A stretch of DNA of 64,000 bases from an uncultured Clostridia bacterium (GCA_947589015.1 CANPZF010000001.1:53604-117603), one strand, 5' to 3'. Counted from the first letter of the stretch, positions 33,075 to 38,247 are shown. The notes: generated from the sequence alone by a model not told the origin. A program made the numbers and translations.

Positions 33075-33441
33075 TGAGGATTTATTGTTAAACAAAAATG
33101 TTAATGCTTATTTTTAATGTGCTAGGGATGTACGTATTACAGTGCTTAAAAAAATATTAAAATATCAACTTTTTACTTTTAAATATTACAGAAATGTTAC
33201 AAAAATATAACAAAAAAGGAAAAAAGAAGAAAAAGCTTGAAAAAGAAATATGCTTAAAGTATAATATAAATATAAATTATAAGCTATTTTTTATAAAAAA
33301 GAAAGAACCTTGAGAAGGGAGAATTCTTATAAAAAAAGAAAAAAAGCAAGTAAAAAACTATTCAGGGAATAAAAAGATAAAAAATGGAAATAATTTAAAT
33401 AGTAAGAAATAGCGAAAAGACAAAAGAAGGGAGAAAAAGAA

Positions 33442-34719
33442 ATGGGAGAAAGGAAAGAAATGCAAAAGAAAAGAGGAAAGGAAAATATGGGAATAACGCT
33501 GATAGCCTTAGTTATCACGATAATAGTGTTACTAATTTTAGCAGCAGTAAGTATAGCAACATTAACAGGAGAAAATGGAATATTAAATCAAGCGTCAAGA
33601 GCAGCAGATAATACAAAAAATGCAACAGAGAAGGAGCAAGTACAATTAGCATATGATGCGCAAATGTCAAAAAATATGGAGAATGGAAAATACACAGTAG
33701 GCACAGATGAAGATGACATAAAAGGATTGCAAGAAGAATTAGATAATTTGGATACAGGAGCAACAGCAAATGGAAATGGAGAAAAAATAGAAGTAGTATT
33801 TCCAAACGAAAATAAGTATAGAATACAAGGAGGAAAAGTAAAAGGACCAATAAAGCAAGCAAAAGTAGGAGAAAAGGTAGAAGGAGAAAATAAAGAATAT
33901 ACAAACGAAGGAACGGCAGTAATCCCAGTAGGATTTGCAATAGTGCCAAATTTAGATAATGTGTCAGAAGGATTGGTAATATCAGATGTAGCGAACGATA
34001 AGAATGATGAAGGAAATCAATTTGTGTGGGTGCCGGTAGAAGATTTTAGTGAGTTTGTAAGATATGATTTTCAGAATGATAAAGCTCTTAATGATAATTT
34101 TACAGAGCCAACACCTGATAATATCGATAAAACTATAACAGGAGAAGAAACAATAGACGAAGTAAAAAAAATGTATGCAAGTGTAAAAGAAAATGGAGGA
34201 TTTTATATAGGAAGATATGAGGCAGGAAAGGACGATGAGAATAAATCAGTATGTAAAAAAAGAAAAACAGTGTGTATTAATATAAAATGGGGAAACAGTA
34301 TGACAGACGAAACAGGAGGAGCAGTAGAGGAAGCAAGAAATTTTGTAGAAGAAACGTATACGGATAAAGTAGGAGTAACAAGTACATTAGTATATGGAGT
34401 ACAATGGGATGCAGTAATGAGATGGATAAGTAATGACGAAAGTTTAAAGGAGTGTTTAAAAGATAGTAAAGGAAAAGGAGTCTATGATACAAATAAACTA
34501 GTCAACACAGGAAGTAATTATCAAATGAAAAATATATATGATATGGCAGGAAATGTGAATGAATGGACAATGGAATCCTATTTGGCTGAAGTACGCGTTG
34601 TGAGAGGAGGCGCTTACTATCGCTCTGCCGACAAGAATCCAGTTTCTAGCCGTGATTGGCTCAGCCCGGGCTCTGGCAGCGAAAGTGTTGGATTTCGCCT
34701 AGCGTTGTACGTTAGGTAA
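33442..34719 (+). CDS. Pilin-like N-terminus plus C-terminal CLec (FGE-sulfatase-like) domain; probable DGR target
   Basis: G|ITLIALVITIIVLLILA; NIYDMAGNVNEWT..VVRGG....R.......VGFR; GC-rich last ~140 nt. Confidence 0.82.
   Translation: MGERKEMQKKRGKENMGITLIALVITIIVLLILAAVSIATLTGENGILNQASRAADNTKNATEKEQVQLAYDAQMSKNMENGKYTVGTDEDDIKGLQEELDNLDTGATANGNGEKIEVVFPNENKYRIQGGKVKGPIKQAKVGEKVEGENKEYTNEGTAVIPVGFAIVPNLDNVSEGLVISDVANDKNDEGNQFVWVPVEDFSEFVRYDFQNDKALNDNFTEPTPDNIDKTITGEETIDEVKKMYASVKENGGFYIGRYEAGKDDENKSVCKKRKTVCINIKWGNSMTDETGGAVEEARNFVEETYTDKVGVTSTLVYGVQWDAVMRWISNDESLKECLKDSKGKGVYDTNKLVNTGSNYQMKNIYDMAGNVNEWTMESYLAEVRVVRGGAYYRSADKNPVSSRDWLSPGSGSESVGFRLALYVR
34579..34719 (+). other. Putative DGR variable region (VR)
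   Basis: Abrupt rise to roughly 50% GC; codons such as GCT, CGC, GCC, GAC, AGC, CTC, GGC fit mutated AAY positions. Confidence 0.65.
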
Positions 34720-34764
34720 AATTTTGAAAGAGTTCGAACGAAGTGAGAACTCTTTCAAAATTTT
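34718..34764 (+). terminator. 18-bp-stem hairpin abutting the stop codon (terminator and/or DGR target hairpin)
   Basis: aaaattttgaaagagttc / gaactctttcaaaatttt. Confidence 0.7.
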
Positions 34765-35112
34765 ATAGCCAAAATGGAACATTTTGGTGATTTAAGCTAA
34801 TACCATATAGTAGGTGGAAGTGTCCTACCTGGTAAAGTCTAACTAACAGCCAGTATCTAGTCTTGGTTTTGAAGCAGTAATGCCAAAAGTAAGTGTAGAC
34901 AAGATAACAAACGAGCCGCAATGCGAAAGCGTGAAACTGTAGAGTTCCGAAATTATGATAATATGCTAAAATAATGTAATTTATTTAAGTGAAATATAAG
35001 TGAATTTTTTTATTAATATACAAAAAATTATCTAAATATAGTATAATATATTTGGATAATTTTTATTTTTATATAAAAAAACAAAAGGCTACTATAAAAG
35101 GAGAAAAAGACC

Positions 35113-36042: not shown

Positions 36043-38185
36043 ATGAAAATAAAATTTAAAGCAATAATATTATTAGTTTTTACTATGTGTATTATGCTAG
36101 GATTAAACACCAAAACACAGGCAAAAAGCTATACCATAGAAGATATGGATATACAAGCAACTATTCAAAACAATGGAGATGTATATGTTAAGCAAAATAT
36201 AACATATGATTTTAAAGGAAGTTATAATGGAATATACATAACAATACCATATGTTTTAAATGATACAGAATATAAAAAAGCTGTACAAAATAATATAATT
36301 GACGAAGAATTATATTATGGAACAGGAGTAGAAGTGCAAAGTGTTTTTATGACACAAAATGGTATAAAAATACAATACAGCGAAAGAAATCAATTTGATA
36401 TGACAACTAGCCAAAATAAAAGTTATACAATAACAGAAGAAAGCAACTTAAAAAAAATAAAAGTATATTCACCTTCAACAGATACAACAAAAAGCTTTGA
36501 AATAAATTATATCATTAAAAATTTATGTGTAAAACACAATGATGTAGGAGAACTATATTATAATTTCATTGGTGGAGAATGGGATGTAGGAATAAAAAAA
36601 TTAAACATAGATATATATTTAAATCAAAACAAAGAAGAAATTAAAATTTGGGGACATGGACCATATAATGGAATCTCAGAAATTATAAGTCCAAATCATG
36701 CAAACTTTAAAGTAGAAGATATAAAAAAAGGGCAATATGTAGCTACAAGAATAATGTTTAATAAAGATAATATTATAAATTCGACTAAAACATCAGGCAT
36801 AAATGCAGAACAAATTATATTAGCTGATGAAAACGAAATATATGAAAATAGAGAAGAAAAAAATAAATATACAAACAAAATGGCAATATTTGCAGGATGT
36901 TTATTCATTTACTGGGTAATATTAATGCTAATTTTTGAAAAGGACAAGAAATATTTTGTAAGTGATATAGATGAAGATGAATTATTTAGAAAATATAATC
37001 CTATATTAGCAGGGTGTATACAAGGAAGTAGAAATATATTAGCAAGAGACATTATAGCAGTTATTTTAAATTTAATTCAGAAAAAATGCATTAATTTAGA
37101 AATAATACCATCATTAAATAATAAAGAAGATTATAGATATGAAATTTCAAAAAATACAGAGTTAGAATCAAATATGGATTCAATAGAAAAGTATGTATAT
37201 GATTGGGTATTTGAAAAACAAGGTAAATTAGATTTAAAAAATAGACTAGAAGAAATGCCTAAAGAAACACAAGCAAATCAAAAATTTAAAGACTTGAACA
37301 ATATAGTAGAAAATAATCTATCTAAAATAGGAGCAAACAAAGCTAGTGTTCCAATGGTACTAAGAGGATTTAACATATTTTTATTTATACTATCAATAGT
37401 ACTAATAATTAAACATATATCTTTTAATGGATTTGATATATATAATTCAGAAATTTCAAATATTATAATAAAAAATATCATTGAAATGATAATAATTTTA
37501 TTGCCATTAATTATGGGAATACTTATGATACCTATCAACTTAATAATAATGCTTAGACATAAAATGAACAAAACTATACAAAGGATTACAGGACAAAAAG
37601 TAGTAACAACAACAATGAGTATAATTTTAATATTTGCAATAATTATAATAGCAACAGTTTTTATAACAAAAGCAAGATATTTAATAGTAGATGAAATATT
37701 AATATGCATAGGAACTATATTAATATTAACAGATAATTTAATGTTAAAAAATAGTGTTACAATGATAGAAGATTATAGCAAATTAAATAGTTTAAAAACA
37801 AAGATAGAAGAATACAGCTTAATGGAAGATAGAGATATAGAATATATTACACTTTGGGAAAAATACTTAGCATATGCTGTAAGCTTTGGAATAGCAAATA
37901 AAATAGTAAAAAGAATAAAAGGATTACATTTAGATGATGATTTAGAAAAAATAGTTAACAGTGCAAATATTAGCAATTTTATCACATCAGACTATTATTA
38001 TTTCTATACATATGCAAGTTTAGATAGAAGATTTGCAAAATCATATTGGAAAGCAACAAAAGGAATCACAAAAACATATATATCTGCCGCAGGTTCTTCA
38101 AGAAGCGGAGGTGGCGGAGGCTTCTCTGGTGGAGGTGGATACTCTGGCGGAGGTGGCAGAGGAGGAGGCGGACGGAGCCTTCTAA
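36043..38185 (+). CDS. DUF2207-family membrane protein, ~713 aa ending GGGGGAF if the C at 38173 is skipped
   Basis: ELYYNFIGGEW, WGHGP, WEKYLAYAVSFG, Gly-rich tail; +1 at CGG gives GGA GCC TTC TAA, zero frame adds 20 atypical residues to 38238. Confidence 0.85.
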
Positions 38186-38247
38186 ATTGTAATTCCAAAA
38201 TATCAAGAAAGGATTTAGTTAGAGTAGAACTAACATAAACAAAGAAA

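Follow-up and report, generated by a model that had tools for sequence, protein, structure and literature searches.

Does the gene P0001, which lies near the middle of a 64,000-nt stretch of DNA from an uncultured Clostridia bacterium (GCA_947589015.1 CANPZF010000001.1:53604-117603; hereafter, the window), encode a target of a diversity-generating retroelement (DGR), and is that target still being rewritten? The source organism is a low-GC bacterium of a rabbit-gut metagenome, and the guanine-plus-cytosine (GC) content of the window is 26.7%. A model working from the sequence alone (the sequence-only reading) had proposed that a chromosomal, non-phage DGR diversifies P0001 and other pilus-tip or adhesin proteins in trans. 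Here, we report that the end of the gene is very probably a variable region (VR) written by a DGR, and we lean, with modest confidence, toward P0001 being a remote target that was serviced in the past, or is so only rarely, and whose VR has partly decayed. The features discussed below are listed in Table 1.

P0001 belongs to a large protein family, since 6,668 of the 8,000 candidates scored were homologs at an E value of ≤1e-3. The homologs were conserved over their whole length except for codons 379 to 416. In the family alignment, column entropy above 2.5 bits was found only within these codons, in 23 columns, and the VR scaffold was invariant (R385, R388-G-G, P400-V-S, R404, P409, and G-F-R). 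At locus L154 of a relative, a target with the same leader is followed by a MutS-domain-I protein, a bAvd protein, an RVT_1 reverse transcriptase (RT), and a 134-nt template repeat (TR), and 96% of the 24 mismatches between TR and VR fall at TR adenines. The same cassette type was also found at L139, L111, L145, L210, and L211 (21 TR/VR mismatches with 95% at adenines in L210; 18 with 89% in L211), and the RVT_1, bAvd, and MutS_I domains were confirmed in the cassettes of relatives. Besides, orthologous VRs from other human-gut samples showed 21 to 28 mismatches to the L154 TR, 79 to 92% of them at adenines, implying that the L154 lineage is actively diversifying. The columns rewritten by the proven TRs of relatives are exactly the hypervariable columns of the family. 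As shown in these relatives, the family of P0001 is a genuine, chromosomal DGR target family of low-GC gut Clostridia. Its cassettes and targets adjoin housekeeping genes, and only one family locus occurs in the 2.9 million contigs of IMG/VR, in accord with the non-phage origin that had been proposed; a phage-borne feature was rejected.

The composition of P0001 bears out the rise in GC content at the gene end that had been noticed at the outset. The stretch 34580-34699 has a GC content of 55%, and a 130-nt segment beginning at 34577 (54.6%) ranked highest among 6,387 segments of this length over the 64 kb. Only a Gly-rich tail near 38051-38081 came within 2 GC points of it; this tail (GGGGGFSGGGGYSGGGGRGGGG) is the C terminus of a DUF2207 membrane protein (38051-38238, plus strand). 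Adenine makes up 18% of the VR versus 46% of the remainder of the gene. The codons had been described as NNC/NNT, and this stood for 16 of the 23 hypervariable ones (versus 29% of the codons elsewhere in P0001; Fisher P = 1e-4; C-ending codons, 30% versus 5%), whereas seven end in a purine (TTG, GAA, GTA, GTG, AAG, TGG, and GAA). Four of the 23 residues (K398, W406, E383, and E414) cannot be reached from AAY, where Y is C or T, and neither can the Leu encoded by TTG. In the hypervariable columns of the family, nearly all residues are accessible from AAY: the combined share of K, E, Q, M, and W is 3.4%, and 40 of 63 members have none of them. Replacement of the VR by cDNA from an AAY-type template would account for the A-poor, GC-enriched, and NNY-rich segment of P0001, as its composition, codons, and homology suggest.

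The predicted structure points in the same direction. Pfam detects an FGE-sulfatase (formylglycine-generating enzyme) domain at residues 365 to 421 only (E value, 4.6e-7), and the AlphaFold model built on 63 homologs has a predicted local distance difference test (pLDDT) score of 91. In a Foldseek search of the PDB with this model, TvpA (2Y3C), a DGR variable protein of Treponema denticola, ranked first, followed by CarF, PorK, FGE enzymes, TaqVP, and Mtd. As modeled, the fold of P0001 is of the FGE/C-type-lectin type with a C-terminal VR, as in DGR variable proteins, which agrees with the lectin- or FGE-like C terminus first described.

Table 1. Features in and around P0001 (positions are counted from the first nucleotide of the window)
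Feature	Position	Strand	Basis
Sigma-70-like promoter candidate TTGAAA-17-TATAAT (11/12), ~180 nt upstream of the P0001 start	33237..33265	+	Consensus match alone
P0001 gene, 425-aa variable protein	33442..34719	+	Open reading frame call and homologs
Prepilin-like leader (16 aa, Lys/Arg-rich, ending in Gly) and hydrophobic helix GITLIALVITIIVLLILAAVSIATL	33442..33567	+	Sequence
Helical stalk (residues 47-80 and 90-102) and small beta domain (residues 108-137)	33580..33852	+	Models
FGE-sulfatase/C-type-lectin-fold domain, about residues 150-425	33890..34716	+	Pfam (C-terminal part), AlphaFold model, Foldseek
Variable region, codons 379-416, 23 hypervariable codons among invariant scaffold	34576..34689	+	Entropy, paralog divergence, GC content
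3' constant block GGATTTCGCCTAGCGTTGTACGTTAGGTAAAATTTTGAAAGAGTTC, 46 nt, candidate region resembling an initiation of mutagenic homing (IMH) site (putative function)	34690..34735	+	Paralog comparison
Long hairpin, 20-bp stem including the stop codon, 11-nt loop region, then TTTTAT	34716..34766	+	Folding
Second small hairpin, 9 bp (CCAAAATGG AAC ATTTTGG)	34768..34788	+	Folding
Multi-copy repeat, group II intron RNA-like fragment, ~170 nt	34785..34953	+	RF02005 sub-threshold match, 34817-34946

Paralogous targets are numerous in the source organism, at least seven in all. P0003, P0004, and P0034 share ENA assemblies with P0001 at similar coverage, and Logan contigs from four runs of one sample included at least six distinct contigs with the constant block; the total counts P0002 and two further contig copies. 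The block, shared by at least six paralogs, has a depth about 4 to 15 times that of the unique VR contig. Several of the Logan contigs of paralogs align with both VR flanks and not across 34580-34686. Between P0001 and P0003, identity is about 97% as far as 34576 and 96% from 34686 to 34735, while about half of the positions in between differ.

Because retrohoming copies every template base other than adenine, VRs written from one AAY-type TR must agree at their third codon positions. P0004 and P0034 differ at 18, 11, and 3 of the first, second, and third positions, respectively, of the 23 hypervariable codons, whereas 34% of the third positions differ between their gene bodies, and to judge from these codons the two VRs look freshly written from one AAY-type template. 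Between P0001 and each paralog, 12 to 14 of the 23 third positions differ, which is near saturation (26 to 38% in the gene body), and the C/T pattern at the third positions of P0001 is uncorrelated with those of P0004, P0034, and the TRs of the clade. Among about 50 family VRs, the freshest have zero to two purine-ending hypervariable codons and keep the consensus C/T pattern at 15 to 21 of 23 codons; all cassette-linked VRs are among these freshest ones, and they match the third-position pattern of the L154 TR at 21 to 23 of 23. The VR of P0001, with its seven purine-ending codons and the consensus pattern at 8 of 23, is among the roughly one dozen family VRs that form a decayed-looking tail. 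Furthermore, its IMH-like block differs from that of P0034 at 4 of 15 nt.

It is for the purine-ending codons, the residues outside the AAY spectrum, the scrambled C/T pattern, and the differences in the IMH-like block that we favor a relic or rarely serviced target. In the mechanism envisaged, an Asn-codon-rich (AAY) TR RNA would be reverse transcribed by an adenine-error-prone RT together with Avd and a MutS-like protein, and the resulting cDNA would replace the VR. That of P0001 would have been written in the past and would now be rewritten rarely or no longer, evolving by ordinary mutation. In this reading, the protein itself is a surface-exposed, ligand-binding one, anchored in the membrane by its leader and hydrophobic helix. 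A helical stalk leads to a head of the FGE/C-type-lectin type, and the variable, ligand-contacting surface would be formed by the final 38 codons of this head.

Several points weigh against decay, all the same. The argument rests on 23 codons, at which several family members score alike, and by residue count alone P0001 is no statistical outlier in the family. The codon data would also follow from a divergent TR that has some non-AAY codons, and a matching TR may exist elsewhere in the source genome. Any decay must be incomplete, as the VR is still very rich in GC. Fresh-looking P0034 shares the exact hairpin and downstream region with P0001, and any cis elements in this downstream module would therefore be intact in P0001, being identical to those of P0034. 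In addition, RT contigs of the clade occur at a depth similar to that of the source organism, unlinked to its genome.

The strongest rival explanation is that one chromosomal DGR of the MutS-like-Avd-RT-TR type currently rewrites the VRs of P0001 and its paralogs in trans. We regard this as possible and less probable than a relic or rarely serviced target. Remote targets are established for non-phage DGRs (PMC5758913), the VR flanks and the IMH-like block are common to at least seven paralogs, and P0004 and P0034 have the appearance of products of a single template, P0034 with the same hairpin and downstream module as P0001. The related metagenome-assembled genome (MAG) BRZ_CS bin95 combines the cassette-linked copy L111 with the remote copies L116 and L118. 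Across 28 related genome loci, covered by an RT motif scan, tblastn, and an adenine-specific repeat scan, no RT or TR was found within 10 kb of the targets except for an incomplete RT where L111 ends.

Against current rewriting stands the outcome of the search for a TR. No TR-like copy of the VR was found in the window by blastn or an adenine-specific mismatch scan, nor was any RT, Avd, or MutS-like gene found there by a motif scan or by tblastn with the cassette proteins of the family, so that the lack of an RT, avd, and TR first noted within the window was upheld. A pattern allowing the VR base or A at each position matched nothing in IMG/VR or the genome collection, the VR itself included, and the source genome therefore lies outside that collection. 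Altogether, no TR for the P0001 VR was detected in the window, IMG/VR, the genome collection (without the source genome), or the baits applied to the rabbit-gut runs. These same runs contain the clade RT contigs, which are 80 to 90% identical in nucleotide sequence to the L154 RT and have depths of 6.3x and 5.1x. With the L154 RT-TR region as bait, we obtained an 849-nt RT contig that continues into unrelated sequence, and the only TR-like contig from the rabbit runs has a TR that ends in ...IGFRIA and belongs to another type of target and another organism. P0202 and P0133, considered as RT candidates of the source genome, were ruled out, both being from other samples.

Other observations also count against ongoing rewriting, among them the seven purine-ending codons, the K, E, E, W, and TTG-encoded Leu beyond reach of AAY, the uncorrelated third positions, and the four differences from P0034 in the IMH-like block. 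In the rabbit-gut run contigs, the VR was represented by one contig (depth, 4.2) without variants, and an exact-protein look-up of P0001 returned as its sole match a 1,569-bp metagenome contig identical to the window; both are a weak test, given that the data are assembler contigs, which drop rare variants. That metagenome contig ends at 34814 because of the multi-copy repeat there. The earlier proposal of a DGR acting in trans is upheld in part: P0001 carries a C-terminal VR of the DGR type and is an orphan within the 64 kb, while the codons of its VR, from the decayed tail of the family, speak against current action.

A broader scheme, which we consider speculative and rather unlikely, would unite fresh and decayed VRs in one organism. 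A single MutS-like (MSL)-type DGR would maintain at least seven C-type-lectin proteins with prepilin leaders in trans, continually recruiting and dropping copies and giving rise to a spectrum from fresh to decayed VRs, and a portable 3' module consisting of the constant block, the 20-bp hairpin, and the intron-like repeat would make a paralog a homing site.

Hypervariability might also have arisen without any DGR, by diversifying selection, gene conversion among paralog cassettes, or both, the GC-rich tail being a recombined foreign segment. Consistent with this, the paralog flanks are mosaic, the hairpin being present or absent and the downstream modules different, and the third positions of P0001 have diverged as much as the first and second. 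We find the explanation improbable: the proven TRs of relatives rewrite exactly the columns that vary, selection in a 27% GC genome would hardly produce such an excess of C/T-ending codons together with so little adenine, and the residue spectrum of the family is that of AAY. A GC-rich tail of foreign or intron DNA was rejected.

Two observations on the paralogs stand apart from this argument. In a strain comparison by exact-protein look-up, P0004 and P0034 contigs were identical save in a multi-copy transposase, a result that is biased by the look-up and uninformative on VR stability. P0004 adjoins genes for TraC-like, VirB4-like (DUF87/AAA_10), and ParA/CbiA-type ATPase proteins and is followed by an apparent IS256-type transposase (L123 478-5317 and 7276-7698), and it may sit on a conjugative element.

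As to the other end of the protein, the N terminus of P0001 reads MGERKEMQKKRGKENMG followed directly by ITLIALVITIIVLLILAAVSIATL (KENMG, then ITLIAL), with a Gly ahead of the hydrophobic helix and Ala, not Glu, at position +5, just as the pilin-like N terminus without Glu5 had been described. This leader and helix module is near-invariant throughout the family alignment. Like type IV pilins, prepilins, and pseudopilins (ComGC, PulG, and PilA), P0001 starts with a short, basic leader that ends in Gly and continues with about 25 hydrophobic residues. Unlike them, it has Ala for Glu at +5, a helix break at GENG, and no match to a pilin fold. No match of P0001 to PF07963 (N_methyl) or TIGR02532 was obtained at an E value of ≤1 in Pfam or NCBIfam, and a distant homolog scored just below the Pfam N_methyl threshold (19.1 versus 21.2 bits). 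In a phmmer search, the N terminus gave weak matches to the N-terminal domains of Geobacter pilins (E values, 0.14 to 0.23), and the Joint Genome Institute (JGI) names one homolog of P0001 PilA. A model of residues 1 to 150 (pLDDT, 78) shows a helix broken at GENG (residues 43 to 46) and, beyond it, a helical stalk with a small beta domain; it had no fold match in the PDB at an E value of ≤0.001, pilins included. Among the immediate neighbors of P0001, which were the genes examined for this purpose, none is a pilus assembly or prepilin peptidase gene. The designation of P0001 as a surface-anchored variable binding protein is justified, and that as a pilus-tip protein, as first suggested, is not supported. 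An unproven alternative to membrane anchoring is that the leader and helix let the protein enter a pilus-like fiber.

The closest known case to P0001 is the TvpA system of T. denticola. TvpA likewise combines an FGE-type C-type-lectin fold with a C-terminal VR, and its system, as well as the family of P0001, involves a chromosomal, non-phage DGR with dispersed paralogous targets, seven of them remote in the case of TvpA (PMC5758913). The two differ in that TvpA is a lipoprotein with an identified TR and RT and adenine-specific mismatches, whereas P0001 has a prepilin-like leader and helix and a partly decayed-looking VR. Remote targets were reported for 45 of 372 DGRs, with up to seven in Treponema, and the MSL accessory gene has been described along with remote targets by Wu et al. 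in 2018 (PMC5758913). Homologs of P0001 are targets in such MSL-type cassettes (L154, L139, L111, L210, and L211), whereas P0001 itself has no cassette gene within about 30 kb on either side. Since MSL-type cassettes and nonadjacent targets have already been published (PMC5758913), P0001 adds one more ordinary example to a known kind. A VR within a G-type pilin domain has been described as a rare arrangement (PMC11661182). A further comparison is offered by the type V pilus adhesins of Bacteroides, which are diversified by a DGR (bioRxiv 10.1101/2024.11.15.621889). These are also surface adhesins under a chromosomal DGR of gut commensals, and there they are associated with a fiber; they differ from P0001 in phylum, pilus type, and fold context, the incorporation of P0001 into a pilus being hypothetical. 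Type IV pili and Firmicutes are not mentioned in that paper.

If a DGR elsewhere services P0001 and its sister genes, the organism would possess a multigene hypervariable surface repertoire comparable to that of T. denticola, in a little-known lineage of gut Clostridia and on a prepilin-like scaffold barely described by DGR surveys. The relic or rarely serviced state that we favor for P0001 tempers the claim of active diversification in trans. A methodological gain is that, without a TR, the third-position pattern together with the test of AAY-accessible residues can separate fresh from relic VRs.

The 3' side of P0001 contains the long hairpin reported at the outset. The 34700-34800 region has a folding energy of -36.8 kcal/mol (z score, -7.1), and none of 200 shuffled sequences folded as well. 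The constant block spans the stop codon and enters the left arm of this hairpin. The whole downstream module of P0001, comprising the long hairpin, the small hairpin, and the repeat, is found identically behind P0034, and the long hairpin is absent 3' of P0003 and P0004. The cassette-linked targets of the family have a short 7-bp hairpin in place of the 20-bp one. A simple scan for intrinsic terminators did not call the long hairpin, the loop and GC content of which lie outside its rule. A role in terminating transcription is the simplest reading of the hairpin, which may in addition serve as a DGR target-site structure.

The repeat behind it matched RF02005 with 42.8 bits (gathering score, 49; E value, 5e-11). 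Its depth is 35 to 110 versus 4 to 8 for unique sequence, and it was present in up to seven or eight contigs of the rabbit-gut runs. It lies behind two paralogs, P0001 and P0034 (window 34785-34953, plus strand, and L207 3609-3720). Other copies run on as GGCGAATAAACAATGAAAAAAAT or GGCGAATAAACAATGAAAAAAATAAAAAAC, an apparent open reading frame start, in contigs of 2.5 to 4.2 kb, and one copy abuts another, different long hairpin. The window contains no intron domain V/VI or intron open reading frame, and no other intron model matched it at gathering thresholds. Insertion after terminator hairpins is typical of bacterial class C group II introns. The repeat resembles them in being intron-like RNA just behind a long hairpin, and differs in being at best a sub-threshold fragment without catalytic domains or an open reading frame in the window. 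The simplest reading is a truncated group II intron of the after-terminator-inserting kind. It probably stands outside DGR function; nothing was found that links the two. That the hairpin and the repeat form a functional mobile retroelement with the GC-rich tail as a part of it, as the RF02005-like match, the multiple copies, and the copy directly after a different long hairpin might suggest, is very improbable, because the conserved C-type-lectin scaffold is encoded in frame by the GC-rich segment, which all homologs have, with or without the repeat (P0003 and P0004 keep the VR architecture without it), and because the repeat starts about 65 nt 3' of the stop codon and has neither domain V/VI nor an intron open reading frame in the window.

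Among the relatives, the RT clade is very large and unusually conserved: the L154 RT had 6,611 database matches below 1e-20, the best 120 of which are all 74 to 96% identical to it, and the targets of the same cassettes are about 30 to 50% identical to each other. At L148 (11712-12224) and L153, a degenerate cassette was observed in which an RT with an internal deletion reads on, as an in-frame fusion, into the translated TR (…NNNGSNNPASNRNNNNPTNSNNNIGFRPALILF); the mismatches of the adjoining VR still fall mostly at TR adenines (79 to 80%). In two independent canonical cassettes, L210 (1067-1198 and 3384-3515) and L211 (1247-1381 and 3529-3663), TR and VR alike contain an extra C directly after the Arg-Gly codons. 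Compared with the remainder of the target gene, the family-like distal half of the VR (…GFRVALYL*) is thereby shifted into the +1 frame. Either the DGR has spread a template mutation, or the frameshift is one in use. At locus L095 (1099-8500) of the MAG Lapin-007__bin29, five genes spread over both strands of a 12-kb stretch start with an identical leader and helix (KGITLIALVITIIVLLILAGVSIATL), and at least seven family loci occur in this MAG, none with an RT within 10 kb.

Within the window, a GGGAG ribosome-binding site was read from the sequence 9 nt 5' of the P0001 ATG. The number of promoter-like sites in the region of the promoter candidate was no higher than in shuffled sequences. The stalk and beta region of P0001 varies in sequence and length between homologs, as measured by column entropy. 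The neighbors of P0001 are rnc (RNase III), a radical-SAM (S-adenosylmethionine) gene, a YitT-family gene, ogg (OGG glycosylase), and a DUF2207 gene. Three tRNA genes lie on the minus strand at 1412-1484, 22979-23049, and 23259-23329. A full-length OLE (ornate large extremophilic) RNA is present at 5381-5979 on the plus strand (337 bits; E value, 2e-95), and an open reading frame at 5904-6590 overlaps its 3' end.

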